DNA from: Candidatus Nealsonbacteria bacterium
GTDB taxonomy: Bacteria; Patescibacteriota; Minisyncoccia; Minisyncoccales; MHMH01
Direction of reading: 5' to 3'
Assembly (NCBI GenBank): GCA_016188865.1
Contig: JACPGX010000005.1
Location: 179,317 to 243,316 of the forward strand
DNA length: 64,000 bases
The notes beneath the pieces were generated by a model. It had not been told where the DNA came from. It searched no databases and was given only the letters and a program-made list of their open reading frames with translations. The position numbers and the translations under genes are program-made. Of this stretch, positions 1,597-40,416 are shown one piece after another. Positions within the stretch are counted from its first letter, which is position 1; each line of letters starts with the position of its first letter.

Positions 1597-2013
1597 ATGT
1601 TGATAATAAGATTTTTTAGAGTAGGCAAAAAAAATCAGCCGTCTTTTAAGATAGTTGTCACGGATAAAAGAAGACCGCCCAGAGCCGGCCGTTTTACGGA
1701 GCAGGTTGGTTTTTATAATCCAGTAACCAAAGAGAGGAATTTAAATAAAGAAAGAATACAATACTGGGTGTCCAAAGGAGCTCAGCCGTCTCTCACGGCT
1801 TATAACCTATTCGTAAAAGAAGGGATTTTACAAGGCAAAAAAATCGCTGTCCATAAAAAGTCAAAAAAGCCGACAGAGGCCCCTGCTTCTGCTGTTTCTG
1901 TCGCAGCCGTCGCTCCTGCAACTCCAGCGGCGACTTCTCCAGCCGAACAACCAGCCGCCGCAGCATCAACCGCTCCAATTACTGAAACTCCAAAAGAAGG
2001 GCCCGTAGCTTAG
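1597..2013 (+). CDS. rpsP: 30S ribosomal protein S16 with Ala/Pro-rich C-terminal tail
   Basis: MLIIRFFRVGKKNQPSFKIVVTD...GFYNP is bS16, followed by a ~55-aa low-complexity A/P/T tail. Stop TAG 2011-2013 lies inside the D-arm of the downstream tRNA-like gene. Confidence 0.9.
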   Translation: MLIIRFFRVGKKNQPSFKIVVTDKRRPPRAGRFTEQVGFYNPVTKERNLNKERIQYWVSKGAQPSLTAYNLFVKEGILQGKKIAVHKKSKKPTEAPASAVSVAAVAPATPAATSPAEQPAAAASTAPITETPKEGPVA

Positions 2014-2033: not shown

Positions 2034-2168
2034 TTCCGATTCCGACTTCGGTCGGAATCGAGAATCCTCGATAATTTTGGTGGGCCAATAGCTCAGCGGC
2101 AGAGCACCTCATTTGCAATGAGGGGGTCGTGGGTTCGAATCCCGCTTGGTCCACCAAAAATATCGGGA
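2034..2168 (+). other. 135-nt insertion/intron-like segment inside the outer tRNA anticodon loop; carries a complete tRNA-Ala
   Basis: Termini TTCCGAT...ATCGGGA are inverted and extend the anticodon stem (with the native TG/CA this makes a 9-bp helix, 2032-2040 with 2162-2170). Interior has a 10-bp hairpin with a TTCG loop (2037-2060), an alternative ATCGAG/CTCGAT hairpin (2057-2072), and a tRNA whose acceptor helix is extended by GGT/ACC (2079-2081 with 2153-2155). Confidence 0.55.
2082..2156 (+). tRNA. tRNA-Ala (anticodon TGC), CCA encoded
   Basis: GGGCCAA TA GCTC AGCGGCA GAGC A CCTCA TTTGCAA TGAGG GGGTC GTGGG TTCGAAT CCCGC TTGGTCC A CCA. Canonical cloverleaf with G3:U70 and A73 alanine identity elements. 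Confidence 0.9.
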
Positions 2169-3509: not shown

Positions 3510-3730
3510 GGGTGCGCACAGCGCAAAGACAGAAGGGAGTGAGTGTCGAGATACGACAGAGATCTCTCATTTCATTTTTCTTCCTTGAGCATATATTCTA
3601 AGATAAGCGAAGGGTTTCCCTAAGCTTGTCAAAGAGTTAGCGATAGGATTAAATCCAAGCTTGGTGGAAAAACGAAGTGGGCTCAAATGCATAAGTATTT
3701 CACGACATTCATTTCCTTCTGTCTTTTGTA
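3510..3730 (+). ncRNA. Structured ncRNA candidate with 6S-RNA-like rod architecture (identity unproven)
   Basis: 24-bp closing helix 3525-3548 with 3703-3726 (21 Watson-Crick pairs, 3 G-U). Second helix 3566-3584 with 3663-3681. The two are separated by a 17/21-nt internal bubble. Apical AAGCTT-containing helix 3622-3628 with 3656-3662. Six non-Watson-Crick positions are G-U on the + strand versus one A-C. Own promoter and terminator; no credible ORF. Confidence 0.55.
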
Positions 3731-25617: not shown

Positions 25618-26871
25618 ATGATACGTAATTTACTCAAACGCTATTACAAATTCAATGCATTTTGGCCGGGGCAGGAAGAAATTATTCAAAGCATCTTAGA
25701 TGGCCGCGATACTTTGGCCGTTATGCCCACGGGCGGCGGTAAATCGCTCTGCTATCAGCTGCCTGCCTTGGTTTTGGAAGGAATAACGCTGGTGATCTCG
25801 CCCTTAATTGCGCTTATGAAAGACCAGGTGGATGTGCTTAAAAAACGGGGAGTGGCCGCCGCGTTTATCAATTCATCGCTTACGGAAAAAGAGGTGAAAA
25901 AGAGAACCAATGAGGCGTTAAAGGGAAAAATAAAAGTTCTGTATATTGCCCCGGAGCGCTTAAACAGCGCTTTTAGTTCGGTTTTACGGGAAATTCCCAT
26001 AAGTTTAGCGGCCATTGATGAAGCGCATTGCGTCTCAACCTGGGGCCACGATTTTCGTCCGGATTACCGCGTCATTAAAGAATGCATTGATTCTTTGCCA
26101 AAACGTCCCATTGTGGCTGGTTTTACCGCCACTGCCACGCCCGAAGTGAGACAAGATATCGTGGAGCGTTTAGGACTCAAAAAGCCGCAGATTTTTGTCA
26201 GGGGATTTGATCGGCCTAATTTGCGTTTTTTTACTTCGGGATGGCTGGATGAATTTACGCGCGACTCGGAAGTTTTGCGTCTGGCAAAGTCCTTGCCGAA
26301 ACCGGGCATTGTGTATGTGGGCAAGCGCGATAAAGCGGAAGAACTCGCCGCTTATCTAACGGAAAGCGGAGTTTCTTCAATCTCATACCACGCCGGACTG
26401 AAAGCGGGGGATAGGACGGATATCCAAGAGGCATTTATGGGGGGCAAAGTATCGGTGATTGTCGCCACGGTCGCCTTTGGCATGGGGATAGACAAGGCCG
26501 ATGTGCGTTTTGTCATACACGCGGGCATGCCCGGAACTCTGGAAAGATATTATCAGGAAGCCGGACGCGCGGGCCGCGACTCTAAACCGGCCACCTGCGT
26601 TTTACTGCATAGCGGCCAAGACAGCGCGCTTCAGAACTATTTTATTAACAAGAGTTATGAGGATTCAATAGAGCGCGGTAAGCCGGAAGATGAGGCCGCG
26701 GCAGTACGCGATTTGAAATACCAAAAGCTTAAACAAATGGAAAAATATGTTATGGCAAATTCCTGCAAAAGAAGGATAATCCTGGATTATTTTGGGGATG
26801 AAAAGACGCGCAAAGAAGAAAATTGTCACGGTTGCGATTACTGTCTTGGTTTACAGGGTATGGTACAATAA
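25618..26871 (+). CDS. recQ: RecQ-family DNA helicase (short form: helicase core + Zn-binding, no HRDC)
   Basis: FWPGQEEIIQSILDGRDTLAVMPTGGGKSLCYQLPA, DEAHC, and C-terminal CxxxxC...CHGCDYC. Confidence 0.9.
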   Translation: MIRNLLKRYYKFNAFWPGQEEIIQSILDGRDTLAVMPTGGGKSLCYQLPALVLEGITLVISPLIALMKDQVDVLKKRGVAAAFINSSLTEKEVKKRTNEALKGKIKVLYIAPERLNSAFSSVLREIPISLAAIDEAHCVSTWGHDFRPDYRVIKECIDSLPKRPIVAGFTATATPEVRQDIVERLGLKKPQIFVRGFDRPNLRFFTSGWLDEFTRDSEVLRLAKSLPKPGIVYVGKRDKAEELAAYLTESGVSSISYHAGLKAGDRTDIQEAFMGGKVSVIVATVAFGMGIDKADVRFVIHAGMPGTLERYYQEAGRAGRDSKPATCVLLHSGQDSALQNYFINKSYEDSIERGKPEDEAAAVRDLKYQKLKQMEKYVMANSCKRRIILDYFGDEKTRKEENCHGCDYCLGLQGMVQ

Positions 26872-30201: not shown

Positions 30202-30355
30202 AATGAAAGGCGGTAAAAAATCATCTCAAAAAGTAATCTTTATAAAAAAAGATTTTCAATTGCCCAAAACGACAGTTAAATTTCGTTCGAGCAATGCAGC
30301 CCCGCGCTTAGAGCACCGCAGGGTAGGGGAATAGGCTATTAATATTGTGCGACAT

Positions 30356-31312
30356 TTAGTCTTTGAGATTTTTACCGCTATGATACTGGCGGTGAACATC
30401 TCTTAGGTGTTTGTTGGTTACGTGAGTATAAATTTGGGTGCTGGTGATGCTACGGTGCCCCAAGAATTCTTGAATAGTTCTTAAATCAACTCCTTGTTCC
30501 AATAAATCGGTTGCCATGCTGTGTCTAAGTGTGTGGGGAGTGGTAAAAATGGGTATTCCGGACAGAATATCATATTTTTTAAGCAATCTTTCTATTGATC
30601 TGGGAGTCAAACGTCTGTCAGATCCTTTTTGGGTTTTATAGTTTATAAACAAGGGTTTTTCTTTATCTTGGCGGGCGATTAAGTATTTTTTTATCCATAA
30701 AAGAGCTCTTTCGGAAAAATAAACCGTTCGGGGATAACTGCCTTTGCCGATTATGCCCAGCTCCAAGTCTTTTTTATCTTTTATATTAGCAAACTGTTCC
30801 TTATTAAGGTTGGTTAATTCAGCTATTCTCAAGCCGGTAGAAAAAAGAGATTCCAAAATGGCCCTGTCGCGCAAGCCATCGGGCTTTCTGGTATCGGGAG
30901 CCAATAAGAGCTTCTCGATCTGTTCTATAGTAAGGAATTTAACAGTTTTTTGGGCTCTGGCATCCTTTGGGAGGGCTATTTTCTCCGGAGGCAGTGAAAC
31001 TATGTCTTTAGCTATAAAATAGCCCAAAATGGCCCTTAAAGCGATAAGATAGTAGCTTTGAGTACTCTTCTTTAAGGGAAGGCCTTTCTTGGCCTGGGAA
31101 CGGGATAAGTGCAGCCTGTAAGCCCAAACATCCTCGGAAGATAGCTCATGCGGCTTAAGGCTGGTTTTTTGAGTGGATTTTAACCAATATACTAATTTAT
31201 CGAGATATCTTTTGTAGTTCTCTTGTGTTTTATCCGACAAGCCTTTTTCCACTTCGCAGTAATCCAAAAAGTCGGGGATATGATTTATTATTGATTTTTC
31301 CGAATGACTCAT
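30356..31312 (-). CDS. xerC: Tyrosine recombinase, XerC/XerD family
   Basis: C-terminal HTLRHSMATDLLEQGVDLRTIQEFLGHRSITSTQIYTHV (R..HxxR..Y catalytic pattern) and an N-terminal SAM-like domain. Confidence 0.85.
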   Translation of the reverse strand: MSHSEKSIINHIPDFLDYCEVEKGLSDKTQENYKRYLDKLVYWLKSTQKTSLKPHELSSEDVWAYRLHLSRSQAKKGLPLKKSTQSYYLIALRAILGYFIAKDIVSLPPEKIALPKDARAQKTVKFLTIEQIEKLLLAPDTRKPDGLRDRAILESLFSTGLRIAELTNLNKEQFANIKDKKDLELGIIGKGSYPRTVYFSERALLWIKKYLIARQDKEKPLFINYKTQKGSDRRLTPRSIERLLKKYDILSGIPIFTTPHTLRHSMATDLLEQGVDLRTIQEFLGHRSITSTQIYTHVTNKHLRDVHRQYHSGKNLKD

Positions 31313-35461: not shown

Positions 35462-36658
35462 TTACATCGCACCGTACTTTTTCACAAATTTCTTAAATAG
35501 ATCACCTCTTTCAGCATAATCTTTAAAAATTCCGAAACTTGGCGAAGCCGGTGAAAGCAGGCATATTTTTCCTTTCCCGGTATATTTATAAGCCGACTTA
35601 ATCGCTTCTTTCATATTATCCGTAAAAACATACGAGAACCGTTCTCGTATGTTTTGCGGTACGGTTTGCCAGATGCGCTGGCCGGTGGTTGGGAATAAAA
35701 TTAAATTTTTGACTTTGCTTTTTGCGATTCTTTCAGCCAATTTTTTAAAGTTTAATCCTCTGTCATAACCGCCCAAAATAAGTGTTTCGACTTTATCTCC
35801 CAAAAAATCTAAGGCCTCAATAGCAGTTTCTGGCACCGTTGAAAGAGAGTCATTATAAAATTCGATTCCTTTGAATTTACCCGTATATTCCAATCTGTGC
35901 GGCAGGGTTTTTAGTCTTTTTGGCATTGGCAACTTAAATATTTTGGCTACAGCCTCTGCGGCAGCCTTGTTCAGTTCATAATACTTGCCAGTGATTGGAA
36001 TTTTTTTAGCTTTTGATTTTTCGGCAATCTTCCTGACTAAAAGATCTTCGCTGTTATAGATTAAATAATCTTTTTTAGTTTGGTATTTAGTAATATTGGC
36101 TTTAGCTCCGACATATTCCTCAAAGCTCTTATAATAATCCAAATGTTCGGGATAAATATTTAAAAGTACTGCAATATGCGGCGATTTTTTCAAGTTATAA
36201 AGCTGGTGGGACGATAGTTCATAAACAAAAATATCATCCTTTTTAGCTTTTAGTAAAGAAGTTAATGCGGGTTTTCCGATATTGCCCACCAAATGAGCTT
36301 TCAATCCCCCGCTCTTGAGAGTTTGATAAATCCAATAAGAAGTCGTGCTTTTTCCCTTAGTGCCAGTGATTCCTATAATTTTTCCCGGACAATTTTCAAA
36401 AAAAATCTTCGTCTGCGTCGTAATCTTCCATAGGTGAAACCTATGGATTTTTTTGAATGAGATGCCGGGAGACTTAATGATAATATCGTAATCTTTAAGC
36501 TTCTTGAGATAGTGCTTATCAAATTTTTGGTCGGCAATATCTATTTTCTTTTTAGGGAATATTTTTTTAAAAAATCTTAAAGTATCCTGTCCTTCCCTGC
36601 CGAATCCAAGAATTGCTATTTTCTTATTTTTATATTTTTTAAAACTATTGACAAACAT
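35462..36658 (-). CDS. murD: UDP-N-acetylmuramoylalanine--D-glutamate ligase (MurD-type)
   Basis: True start taken at ATG 36658 (MFVNSFKKYKNKKIAILGFGREG). GITGTKGKSTT P-loop. The 103 extra N-terminal codons in the tracked ORF run through a stop-poor G+C-rich island. Confidence 0.85.
   Translation of the reverse strand: MFVNSFKKYKNKKIAILGFGREGQDTLRFFKKIFPKKKIDIADQKFDKHYLKKLKDYDIIIKSPGISFKKIHRFHLWKITTQTKIFFENCPGKIIGITGTKGKSTTSYWIYQTLKSGGLKAHLVGNIGKPALTSLLKAKKDDIFVYELSSHQLYNLKKSPHIAVLLNIYPEHLDYYKSFEEYVGAKANITKYQTKKDYLIYNSEDLLVRKIAEKSKAKKIPITGKYYELNKAAAEAVAKIFKLPMPKRLKTLPHRLEYTGKFKGIEFYNDSLSTVPETAIEALDFLGDKVETLILGGYDRGLNFKKLAERIAKSKVKNLILFPTTGQRIWQTVPQNIRERFSYVFTDNMKEAIKSAYKYTGKGKICLLSPASPSFGIFKDYAERGDLFKKFVKKYGAM
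35625..35655. repeat. Intragenic palindromic element, copy 3 (single unit, inside murD)
   Basis: AAAACATACGAGAAC-C-GTTCTCGTATGTTTT with exact 15-nt arms. Encodes QNIRERFSYVF. Confidence 0.8.
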
Positions 36659-36676
36659 AATATTATATGTTATGAT
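36648..36676 (+). promoter_or_regulatory. Near-consensus promoter driving the G+C-rich orphan gene
   Basis: TTGACA (36648-36653), 17-nt spacer, TATGAT (36671-36676). Overlaps the murD start codon region on the other strand. Confidence 0.65.
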
Positions 36677-36733
36677 GTATTTGTCGAACTGGGGCCATCT
36701 GCTTCGGCAAATATTTCTAAAGGAGGTATTAAA

Positions 36734-37090
36734 ATGGCCATCGAAAAAGGAACATTGGTAATGGTGGAGGGGGCGGTGGTTCATATTACAACTATGAACC
36801 GAGAGGGTCGCCTCTATGAGCGCGACAAGCGTGTTCCTCCGGGGCGGCCCATCTTCGGTACCGTAGAAGGAACCTACGAGGTTCAGAAAGCGGTATTCGG
36901 GGAGAACGAAGAAATCGTCAAACCGGCCAAGTTCGTTGCTTTCGTTCAGTGGGACGGACCCAAGCATCGGACATCCATCCTTCCGTTAGAGAAACTCCAG
37001 CCGGCAATCAACGACGTTCTCAACCCCGCGCCGCTCGTGGAGGCGCCGAAAAAATCACCCCGCCGGCGAAAAACCACGAAAAAGCAGTAA
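36734..37090 (+). CDS. G+C-rich orphan protein (118 aa, basic C-terminal tail), antisense insertion in the dcw cluster
   Basis: AAGGAGG Shine-Dalgarno sequence 7 nt upstream of the ATG. Hand counts: 36781-36840 is 31/60 G+C and 36841-36900 is 35/60, versus 17/60 for 36541-36600 in murD. Ends KKSPRRRKTTKKQ. Confidence 0.65.
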   Translation: MAIEKGTLVMVEGAVVHITTMNREGRLYERDKRVPPGRPIFGTVEGTYEVQKAVFGENEEIVKPAKFVAFVQWDGPKHRTSILPLEKLQPAINDVLNPAPLVEAPKKSPRRRKTTKKQ

Positions 37091-37101
37091 ATCTGCGATC
37101 C

Positions 37102-37130
37102 AAGGCTCTGACCATTATGGTCAGAGCCTT
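37102..37130. terminator. Bidirectional hairpin terminator
   Basis: AAGGCTCTGACC ATTAT GGTCAGAGCCTT (12 bp, perfect). Contains the stop codon of the convergent minus-strand gene. Confidence 0.7.
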
Positions 37131-38383
37131 ACCTGTTTTAAAAGATACGGTATTTTGCCTAATTTTCTTGCTTCTTCAAAAGATAGCAAAGCCGCTTCTC
37201 TGCTTTCTTGGTAAGTACCCACACACTCAAAGGGCTTGTGTATTCCCTCCCCTATCAAAGATTTCATAAGAGGTAATAATTTTTTATCTTGCAATAAATC
37301 TTTTCCGAAAATTTTTAGCAAATCTTTATTTCTTAACAAGGGATACAAGCTTATATACACAAAAAGGCATTTAGGGCATTTGCCGCACCAGCGCTCTCCT
37401 ATTTTAGAACCAAGATTGCAGCTGGAGAATACGGAAAAATATTTTGGATATTTAGCAAACATTTTAGAAATTTCCAATTCGCCGTATTTTCTTAAATAAC
37501 TGAAATAATTGATATTTTTTGCCAGATATTTTTTGCAGTAATATTTAAACATTTTTTCAAATTCTGAACTTTTGGCCCATTGATGGTTTATAATCCTTCC
37601 GAGATATTTAACGTTTCCCTCATTGGCGCTTTTTTCATTTGAAAAAGCGATATTTTTATAGCCGAATAATACAGCGCAGAAAACAGACAAAAATGACAGA
37701 AGCGCGGTAAACGGCGTATGGCCGTTTAGCAAAGCACCCTCTTTATTTAATTCCAATAGTTTCGGATCAATTTTTCTCTCAACGATAATGGGATTTTTTA
37801 TTCCAGCTACCCTTAAAACATCTTTCGCGGCCTTCGTGGGATTAACCGTAAAGGCATTTATTTTTTTTCTGGCCCTTCTTAGTTTCTCTAGTGTAACAAT
37901 AGAATCTCTCCCTCCTCCCATCGGCACCAAATGTTTATTTTTTAGCTTAATGTCGGTACGCCTTAATTCAACCATGGGATAATTAAGGCGATTAGAGGCA
38001 ATGGTCAAAAAATTTGATTTACGCCAGTTTATTTTATTTTCGTAGAAAAACTGTCCCATGCCCTTAATTATTAAATTTTTCCACCAGCTAATTTGTTCTT
38101 TATTCAAATAGCCAGCTTCAATAATAATTTTCGGCGAACAAGTTGCTTTCCAGTAACTAAGCATTTCTATCAATCCCACATGAAATATTAAATTATCGAG
38201 AACGTTTCTCGTAGGGACGAGATGCGTTCTCGATAATTTTTTAATGATAATTTGCGGCCGAAAACTGATACCGGGCGGTATCTCGAAAAAGAAGGAGATT
38301 TTTAAATCTCCACCCTTTATTTCGTAGCCGTAATTTCTATATATAAACCTAGGATATTTTTTTCTTAAAATTTTTGATTTCAT
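37121..38383 (-). CDS. PP-loop-like ATPase family protein; candidate MurL-type UDP-MurNAc-L-Ala-L-Glu epimerase (hypothesis)
   Basis: Start taken at ATG 38383 (ATGA overlap with the mraY stop). VPMGGGRDS resembles the SGGxDS PP-loop. C-terminal CGKCPKC. Position between mraY and murD. Confidence 0.4.
   Translation of the reverse strand: MKSKILRKKYPRFIYRNYGYEIKGGDLKISFFFEIPPGISFRPQIIIKKLSRTHLVPTRNVLDNLIFHVGLIEMLSYWKATCSPKIIIEAGYLNKEQISWWKNLIIKGMGQFFYENKINWRKSNFLTIASNRLNYPMVELRRTDIKLKNKHLVPMGGGRDSIVTLEKLRRARKKINAFTVNPTKAAKDVLRVAGIKNPIIVERKIDPKLLELNKEGALLNGHTPFTALLSFLSVFCAVLFGYKNIAFSNEKSANEGNVKYLGRIINHQWAKSSEFEKMFKYYCKKYLAKNINYFSYLRKYGELEISKMFAKYPKYFSVFSSCNLGSKIGERWCGKCPKCLFVYISLYPLLRNKDLLKIFGKDLLQDKKLLPLMKSLIGEGIHKPFECVGTYQESREAALLSFEEARKLGKIPYLLKQVRL
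38190..38239. repeat. Intragenic palindromic element, copy 4
   Basis: AAATTAT-CGAGAACGTTTCTCG-TAGGGA-CGAGATGCGTTCTCG-ATAATTT. Encodes KLSRTHLVPTRNVLDNL on the minus strand. Confidence 0.85.
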
Positions 38384-39456: not shown

Positions 39457-40416
39457 TTACCACGAATAAGCTATATCTAGCCAATTTGCCAGTTTTTTCA
39501 TTTCTGAAAATCTATTATTAGTTCCCAAAATAACATTAATGATATATCCTCTTCCCCTGGGAGCTTCTAAAACTAAAATAAAACATCCTTGAGCTTTTTC
39601 AGTGTATCCCGTTTTTCCTCCGGCTATTCTTGGCAATTCTCCGAGAAGTTCATTGGTGTTCACTAATTCTGGTCCATAGCTGTTGAATTTTGGGGTATTG
39701 AGAATTTCCCACAGCAATTTGTCGTCGAAAGTTGATGCAACTAATTTAGCTAAATCTAATGCCGTAGAATAATTAAATGGCTTGGCAGCATCTTCCGGAT
39801 CGAGTCCGGTTGGATTAAAAAAATGCGTGTTTTGCAGTTTAAAATTACCGGCTTTTTCATTCATCATCCGCAAAAAATCTTTTTCTGTCATGCCTTCATA
39901 ATTATTAGCCAGGGCATAAGCCGCATCATTGCTCGACTCTATTAAAAGTGGATAAAGCAGATATTTTACCGTATGAACCTCGCCCAAAGATAGTTTTCCG
40001 AGATTTTCTTCCTGATTTATAGCTTCTTTCGAAATTTTAATTTCTTTTAGAAGGTCATAATTATCTAAAACAACTTTTGCCGTCATCAATTTAGTAAGGC
40101 TGGCTATGGGGAGCAAAGTATTCTTATCTTTTTCAAAAAGAATCCGTTTTTCGCCGCGATTATTTATCAGCAAAGAAATAGCCGATTTTGCCGCGATTTC
40201 TATGTTAGGAATATCTTCATCGCGCAAAGGTTTTAAGCTCATCATTTGCTGCTGAAAAGCTAATTGGTTCGCCTCGGCAGCCAGCAAACGAGGGTCATTA
40301 GCTAACTCCAGTCCATAAAAAAAAGTTTTGGAGTCCTCACTTAAAACGTTGGCTCCCCACCAAAAAAAAATGCTCAACAGAAGCGGAATTAAAAAATATT
40401 TTAAATTTCTGCTCAT
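39457..40416 (-). CDS. D-alanyl-D-alanine carboxypeptidase (S11, PBP5-like)
   Basis: SxxK (ASLTKLM), SxN (SSND) and KTG (KTGYT) motifs, with an N-terminal anchor. Confidence 0.8.
   Translation of the reverse strand: MSRNLKYFLIPLLLSIFFWWGANVLSEDSKTFFYGLELANDPRLLAAEANQLAFQQQMMSLKPLRDEDIPNIEIAAKSAISLLINNRGEKRILFEKDKNTLLPIASLTKLMTAKVVLDNYDLLKEIKISKEAINQEENLGKLSLGEVHTVKYLLYPLLIESSNDAAYALANNYEGMTEKDFLRMMNEKAGNFKLQNTHFFNPTGLDPEDAAKPFNYSTALDLAKLVASTFDDKLLWEILNTPKFNSYGPELVNTNELLGELPRIAGGKTGYTEKAQGCFILVLEAPRGRGYIINVILGTNNRFSEMKKLANWLDIAYSW

Follow-up and report, generated by a model that had tools for sequence, protein, structure and literature searches.

The 64-kb stretch of DNA analysed here (the window) has a G+C content of 39.2%, and the NCBI names of its encoded proteins assign it to Candidatus Nealsonbacteria, a member of the candidate phyla radiation (CPR/Patescibacteria). 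Identical contigs are present in the runs SRR12113383, SRR12113420, SRR12113422 and SRR12113430. Within its division and cell wall (dcw) cluster, a small gene for a protein of 118 residues (P0001; 36734-37090, plus strand) lies antisense between murL and murD. This open reading frame (ORF) is almost certainly a genuine conserved protein-coding gene, judged by its pattern of divergence. It belongs to a small protein family which, according to our searches, is previously undescribed and has members only in Candidatus Nealsonbacteria-like CPR bacteria. Its cassette is physically interlocked with two essential genes: the murD start codon is covered by the promoter and the murL stop codon by the terminator. 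The gene was very probably not acquired recently, and its high G+C content, above all at third codon positions, is probably held by selection. We lean towards reading it as a long-resident gene under strong transcription that forms, together with the dcw genes, an arrangement like a noncontiguous operon. Antisense coupling with the dcw genes is suggested more tentatively. An antisense gene with strong signals, placed within the essential dcw cluster of CPR bacteria with reduced genomes, is an unusual layout.

The small gene, its protein family and its position

A sequence-only reading of this DNA had described a consensus promoter, the Shine-Dalgarno (SD) sequence AAGGAGG and the 118-residue ORF, and all three proved to be correctly placed. 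The sigma-70-type promoter (36648-36676, plus) has the -35 box TTGACA at 36648-36653, a 17-nucleotide spacer, an extended -10 TG at 36668-36669 and the -10 box TATGAT at 36671-36676. It matches the consensus at 11 of 12 positions and has the top score within 36000-38000. For the extended pattern TTGACA-N12-TATGNTATNNT, the window has one occurrence, as against 0.04 expected. The spacer of the promoter contains the murD ATG (36658-36656, minus), and murD codons 2-4, in reverse, form the -35 box. With the transcription start deduced from the promoter, the 5′ leader would be about 51 nucleotides long (36683-36733, plus). It contains AAGGAGG at 36720-36726 (plus), 7 nucleotides ahead of the ATG at 36734 and kept in all carriers.

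The intrinsic terminator (37102-37139, plus) has a stem formed by 37102-37114 and 37118-37130, the loop TTA and a T-run at 37136-37139; ACCTGTTTT follows the hairpin (37102-37130). The hairpin had been described as perfect with 12 bp. The hairpin itself stands, and the computed stem has 13 pairs around a 3-nucleotide loop. Its right arm and the T-run double, on the other strand, as the last murL codons and stop (37121-37123). The gene that had been called mraY-proximal is thus murL, with its 3′ end inside the small gene's terminator.

The closest homologue (P0002, 61% identity in a word-indexed search) is encoded on a 689-bp contig, L001, which has the same murD start at its left and the same terminator and murL end at its right. 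When the window was compared with L001, 42 of 81 synonymous sites differed as against 41 of 261 non-synonymous sites (ratio of non-synonymous to synonymous substitution rates, dN/dS, 0.20; Fisher p = 5e-10). Differences at codon positions 1, 2 and 3 numbered 24, 17 and 42, and all indels within the ORF were multiples of 3. The promoter and leader (murD start to ATG) were 84% identical and the downstream region 85% identical, with synonymous sites differing at about 50%.

An exhaustive hidden Markov model (HMM) search of 1.84 billion representatives gave 14 true members of 54-200 residues. P0002, P0019 and P0020 are three further members, the last two found by a second indexed search. Three large matches of the HMM search (P0003, P0004 and P0017) were discarded as repeat-protein artefacts. 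The family therefore has about 17 sequences, with a typical length of roughly 100-140 residues and an isoelectric point of 8.8-10.4 in 15 of the 17. The common core is MAxIxxGMLVKV ... ITT ... GRxYxRxK ... FLFGTV ... [variable insert] ... PAKxxALVRWxGxKYRTSxLPVExLxPA, and a Lys/Arg tail (residues about 105-118) is found only in the window protein and its closest homologue. The gene had been called an orphan whose protein matched nothing, a view that the homologues, 36-61% identical to the window protein, overturn. No member matched a known family below E = 0.01 in Pfam-A, NCBIfam, PHROGs, PADLOC or PDB sequences; the top PDB sequence match was NdhO, at a non-significant E of 1.8. We know of no described family with the motif FGTV ... 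ALVRWxGxxYRTSxLPxExL.

The AlphaFold2 model, built with 11 family sequences, has six strands and a mean predicted local distance difference test (pLDDT) score of 76.9. Most of the strand core scored 84-93, the central 51-70 segment scored lower, and the C-terminal tail was disordered. The small protein is thus modelled as a mostly basic six-stranded beta-barrel. Foldseek found no significant match of the model in PDB or BFVD; its top match, the SH3-like C-terminal domain of nitrile hydratase beta, was non-significant (probability 0.9, template modelling score 0.41). The basic barrel hints at nucleic-acid binding, which is the likeliest activity to propose but which we regard as doubtful.

Eleven distinct family proteins were placed on contigs (P0001, P0002, P0019, P0015, P0012, P0013, P0007, P0018, P0006, P0014 and P0010). 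All 11 genes run antisense to murD and adjoin its start. In nine of them murL is on the far side, and the remaining two contigs stop at or just past the terminator. The promoter TTGACA-N12-TATGnTATnnT, the leader blocks, the strong SD and a G+C-rich hairpin with a T-run are present in all carriers, and in every carrier the murD ATG is within the promoter region and the last murL codons are within the terminator stem and T-run. Across nine carriers, 12 terminator pairs are conserved, 7 of them with compensatory changes, and in most carriers the U-tract is only on the small gene's strand. The Spearman coefficient between small-protein and MurL identity among carriers was 0.04, which is uninformative because the identity range is narrow and likely saturated. 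On contig L021, ATA stands at 3658-3660 where all other members have the ATG start, and the database protein P0012 (200 residues) is an upstream-extended call through the leader. A metagenome scan with a relaxed promoter and leader pattern gave 28 matches, mostly to unrelated genes. The relevant ones were L028 and L042 (L007 type) and L040 and L054 (L018 type), and the scan with this pattern revealed no new carrier lineages.

The sequence-only reading had also noted a 103-codon extension of murD (36659-36967, minus) and had called it false. The extension exists and is spurious, being the codon-aligned antisense frame of a small gene rich in G+C at third codon positions (GC3). A true N-terminal extension of MurD (501 instead of 398 residues) was ruled out, as MurD homologues align from residue 1 of the 398-residue form. 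The codon-aligned antisense frame is the most open antisense frame in every small-gene homologue, and in the homologues compared its ends fall at varying places relative to the murD start. Translational coupling through a genuine antisense ORF from murL to murD was also ruled out, because the open frame is always the codon-aligned one.

The flanking genes were identified as follows. MurD (35462-36658, minus) is a Mur ligase of 398 residues with a TIGR01087 score of 274.6 bits (cutoff 211.95); the window shows no SD ahead of its start. MurL (37121-38383, minus) has the precomputed Pfam domains MurL_N and MurL_epimerase_C and scores 285 bits with NF041275, under the cutoff of 700. The layout of the window is mraY-murL (minus), the small gene (plus) and murD-ftsW-murG (minus); the gene order mraY-murL-murD-ftsW-murG is common to 12 related species genomes. 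The murL-murD adjacency and the order mraY-murL-murD-ftsW are conserved in Nealsonbacteria and related CPR genomes (the window and L006-L017). The MurL epimerase homologue is encoded beside a MurD-type ligase, as in the arrangement of the MurD2/MurL D-glutamate (D-Glu) pathway, and CPR bacteria may obtain the D-Glu of peptidoglycan by this alternative route. A 2021 review of the pathway names only Gamma- and Alphaproteobacteria and rare actinobacteria (PMC8788868). A gene for a D-Ala-D-Ala carboxypeptidase/endopeptidase (Peptidase_S11) at 39457-40416 (minus) lies between the aspartyl-tRNA synthetase gene and mraY, with the same placement in the relative L018.

Possible transcription across the murL-murD junction

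Judged by its promoter, the small gene would be transcribed strongly and independently. Its transcription would run head-on against that of the dcw genes, which in relatives would pass straight from murL into murD. Since the small-gene RNA would start at about 36683 and the murD ATG is at 36658, the two RNAs would overlap unless the murD leader were shorter than about 25 nucleotides. If dcw transcription continues beyond murL, as the overlap of murL and murD in relatives suggests, the whole small gene would be antisense to internal untranslated operon RNA. The locus could then act as a noncontiguous operon or excludon, with expression of the small protein and of murD-ftsW-murG reciprocally coupled. 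The overlap of the promoter with the murD start had been pointed out before; it is seen in the sequence, and the antisense interference suggested from it is physically plausible.

The leaders share the blocks GUCGAA, GGCCAU, GC-UUCG-GC and an anti-SD, AAUAUUUCU, able to pair with GGAGGUAUU. Over 10 leaders, the recurrent folds were GGCCAU:AUGGCC, which covers the start codon and codon 2, the GC-UUCG-GC mini-hairpin, and the pairing of the U-rich anti-SD with GGAGGUAUU. An alternative 5′ stem, GUCGAA:UUCGGC, is also possible. Some variants are compatible with pairing: L025 starts with AUGACCUC and has GAGGU replacing GGCCAU, and L001 and L024 use GCCAUC:GAUGGC. Translational gating by the leader is plausible on these pairings. 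The whole sense transcript is more stably folded than its shuffles (z = -4.9; 0 of 100 shuffles as good), compared with z = -1.4 for the antisense.

A bolder version makes the cassette a dcw regulatory module. The promoter at the murD start and a stable G+C-rich duplex with dcw mRNA would switch murD-ftsW-murG apart from mraY-murL, and the basic barrel would bind its own leader or the murD initiation region. The composition would be selected at the RNA level, in a dual-function mRNA and antisense regulator. We consider this version improbable.

Several results weigh against the noncontiguous-operon-like reading. Leader covariation was not significant, with 81% of cells paired as against 79% in column shuffles. 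Sequestration of the SD and AUG was barely over shuffled controls (SD pairing probability 0.75 vs 0.60), and the folding z of the ORF alone ranged from +0.2 to -5.7 across homologues and was alike on both strands. A convincing minus-strand murD promoter was not found in carriers, though one may exist. The L021 member with ATA at the start position may be a pseudogene, use a non-canonical start or reflect an assembly error. Carriers are scattered and not monophyletic on the MurD+MurL tree. Unrelated small genes occupy the same junction in L007, L010, L013 and L015, and the murL-murD position may simply be a permissive slot. The other junction inserts are also somewhat G+C-richer than their hosts, which could point to a shared, G+C-richer mobile gene pool and not to selection.

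The history of the junction bears on these points. A sensitive profile search found no family member in the 12 species representatives L006-L017. In the non-carriers L016, L014, L011 and L008, the murD ATG is within the last murL codons, so the cassette does split a normally contiguous junction, as had been proposed. On the bootstrapped MurD+MurL tree, the window and L021 are nested (100% support) within a clade that they share with the non-carriers L006, L014, L008, L009 and L013, and the carriers L018 and L023 fall outside it. Such scatter implies either that the gene arose once and then spread between related lineages by recombination, or that the uninterrupted allele replaced it repeatedly. 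The presence or absence of the small gene is a natural polymorphism usable for testing its role.

In L007 (5381-5715, minus; also in L028 and L042), a homologous promoter and leader extend to the UUCG block and are followed by an unrelated 80-residue ORF (MFRARLFVGTPESF...). A 61% homologue of this ORF belongs to a two-gene cassette that lies in a different context in another Patescibacteria genome (L056, 3700-4243). The ORF behind a conserved expression platform has been swapped in the L007 lineage. Further junction contents were seen in L015 (5277-5870), L013 (5178-5750), L009 (5270-5545) and L010 (5195-6625). The ORFs in these relatives encode a membrane-like protein of 79 residues and proteins of 68, 143 and 171 residues, with two ORFs in L010, and some of the four junctions have sense-oriented consensus TTGACA-17-TATAAT promoters.

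A different explanation is that the small gene is a passive passenger in a permissive murL-murD slot. It would be an accessory gene without regulatory interplay, murD would have its own promoter, and the gene would persist partly because its signals carry the murD start and the murL stop, which makes clean deletion hard. The unrelated inserts fit this explanation, above all that of L007 with its retained promoter and leader, as do the sense-oriented consensus promoters or small ORFs of L015, L013 and L009 and the two ORFs of L010. The carriers are also patchy on the MurD+MurL tree, and non-carriers manage without the gene. Against it stand the one position and orientation kept in all 11 placed proteins, the purifying selection (dN/dS 0.20) and the conservation of the non-coding signals. 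Carriers yielded no credible promoter or SD for murD, and overlap of the transcripts is hard to avoid with the murD ATG inside the promoter. We therefore regard the passenger explanation as somewhat unlikely.

It is distinctly improbable that the small protein is a functional partner that binds or regulates MurL or MurD, and so acts on the D-Glu supply to the peptidoglycan precursor. The strict murL/murD neighbourhood of all placed members is what favours it, but this position may be shared through common descent of one insertion, which weakens the neighbourhood evidence. Equally close relatives with the same murL-murD pair lack the gene, which is on the opposite strand and not co-transcribed with murL and murD, and the protein has no known domain or fold match.

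The cumulative GC skew of the window peaks near 31.2 kb, where gene orientation switches, and a XerC/XerD-type recombinase gene lies at 30356-31312 (minus). The region of about 30300-31300 looks like a replication terminus, in which case the small gene, at a distance of 5.5 kb, would be head-on to replication.

Composition and age of the small gene

The G+C content of the ORF is 0.549 (GC3 0.630), compared with 0.351 in murD, 0.345 in murL and 0.392 in the window (z = 3.7 among 357-nucleotide windows); the contrast with murD had been estimated from short stretches and held for the full genes. The excess is a property of the whole family. The G+C content of each member exceeds that of its flanks by 10-23 points (ORF 0.48-0.61 vs 0.27-0.47), and family GC3 is 0.56-0.73 vs 0.35-0.52 in murD and murL genes where measured. 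The excess holds across hosts from about 36% to 47% G+C. Pooled codon use is shifted to G- and C-ending codons for nearly every amino acid, with third-position frequencies of 0.37 for G and 0.30 for C vs 0.19 and 0.18 in the host.

Host genes in the window have a GC3 of about 0.37. Host genes of putatively high expression, which by eye are S16-, L9- and EF-P-like, have an ordinary GC3 of 0.35-0.37, so the shift is not accounted for by ordinary translational codon bias. A level of about 65% G+C at synonymous sites, in hosts of roughly 37-52%, appears to be kept by something other than history, probably by transcript-level selection. Most simply, the G+C richness would serve a stable, structured transcript without AT-rich signals on either strand.

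The small gene is one of the three G+C-richest spots in the window. At another, a truncated RecQ-family helicase gene (25618-26871, plus; 417 residues) has a G+C content of 0.48 and a GC3 of 0.50, rising to 0.56 around 26260-26640. The third is an ORF at 1597-2013 (plus) whose N-terminus resembles S16 by eye and whose C-terminus is extended by a long G+C-rich stretch; the window's only tRNA follows it at 2082-2153 (plus). In L033, L043 (4853-5074), L044 and L049, a 73-residue ORF (MVEIYRNGDVIRVRG..., with an Arg-rich tail) stands behind a similar TTGACA / TATGATAT promoter and has a G+C content of 0.59 vs 0.45 in the host. Genes of this kind, small, G+C-rich and with strong signals, may be more widespread in these genomes.

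The atypical composition had been read as a sign of recent horizontal acquisition, from a G+C-richer donor and not yet decayed toward the host. Apart from the G+C content and codon use, this explanation can draw on the many relatives that lack the gene, with murL and murD overlapping there, and on the carriers not being monophyletic. We consider it very improbable all the same. The same site, orientation and G+C excess recur in 11 diverged proteins, so that the lineage as a whole keeps the gene in one place and with much the same composition. Between the window and L001, the synonymous divergence (dS) of the small gene is 0.90, equal to that of the adjacent murD (0.82), and over such divergence a foreign composition not kept by selection should presumably have drifted towards that of the host. 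Among the 1.84 billion representatives, nothing resembling a donor was present outside the clade.

Signs of mobility were also absent where they were sought. A tblastn search of 50,697 phage records gave no match, plasmids not being searched. No significant flanking repeat was found in eight of nine carriers, one of the nine having a repeat beyond chance. The TTTTAAAA repeat that flanks the window cassette was rejected as a target-site duplication, as it is not significant and stems from AT-rich Lys/Leu/Phe codons. No mobility gene is next to the small gene, the nearest recombinase being the Xer-type gene 5.3 kb away. For genome scans this is a caution: an island that stands out sharply in G+C and codon usage and brings a promoter and terminator of its own mimics recent transfer and is here stable across diverged lineages.

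That the G+C-rich segment is a structured or antisense RNA with an incidental ORF is scarcely credible. In its favour, an island of high G+C in an AT-rich genome is often an RNA gene, the sense transcript has more structure than its shuffled controls, and L007 keeps the promoter and leader with its ORF replaced. But the absence of any Rfam match at E <= 1 in 36000-37800, where the whole window gave only one tRNA, together with strong coding evidence (protein-level conservation, third-position variation, in-frame indels, the dN/dS of 0.20, a beta-barrel model rated confident, and a strong conserved SD and ATG), led us to reject a structured RNA in place of the gene.

Comparison with known systems

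Compared with islets of recent transfer, the small gene is likewise an outlier in G+C and codon usage, has its own promoter and terminator and is missing from part of its clade. It differs in that the anomaly is kept in every lineage despite synonymous divergence equal to that of the flanking gene, and in that mobility genes, a target-site duplication and an outside donor are lacking. The protein resembles SH3-like small beta-barrels such as the nitrile hydratase beta C-terminal domain and NdhO in its size of about 100 residues and its all-beta six-strand barrel model, whereas neither its sequence match nor its structure match to them is significant.

Leaders that sequester the SD include RNA thermometers (fourU and ROSE) and the autoregulated leaders of ribosomal and cold-shock protein genes. 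The small-gene leader is similar in that its U-rich anti-SD can form G-U and A-U pairs with GGAGG, and in that its second block, GGCCAU, is complementary to the start codon region. It differs in that no Rfam family matches it and its covariation is not significant.

The closest parallel to the preferred reading, that of a long-resident gene in a noncontiguous-operon-like arrangement, is the menE-menC / MW1733 locus of Staphylococcus aureus, which represents the noncontiguous operon class (Saenz-Lahoya et al. 2019, as cited in PMC11034616) within the wider excludon concept (PMC7154746). Members of this class need transcript data and are unpredictable from sequence (PMC11034616). Co-transcription across the antisense gene defines the class, and mutual repression of operon and antisense gene, by transcriptional interference and RNase III, also belongs to it. 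At the present locus such co-transcription may occur, with indirect support from the murL-murD overlap in non-carriers and from a terminator U-tract that most carriers have on the plus strand only. The locus differs from the class in that the antisense promoter is on the start codon of the downstream gene and the terminator on the stop codon of the upstream gene, in the persistent compositional anomaly of the antisense gene, and in its host, a CPR bacterium. As in the class, a small opposite-strand gene is flanked by co-directional, functionally linked genes that are contiguous in relatives (here overlapping), and the antisense transcript would be complementary over its full length to untranslated RNA within the operon. 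Given read-through transcription, the locus would be an arrangement of the noncontiguous-operon type found beyond the Firmicutes and governing cell-wall and division genes.

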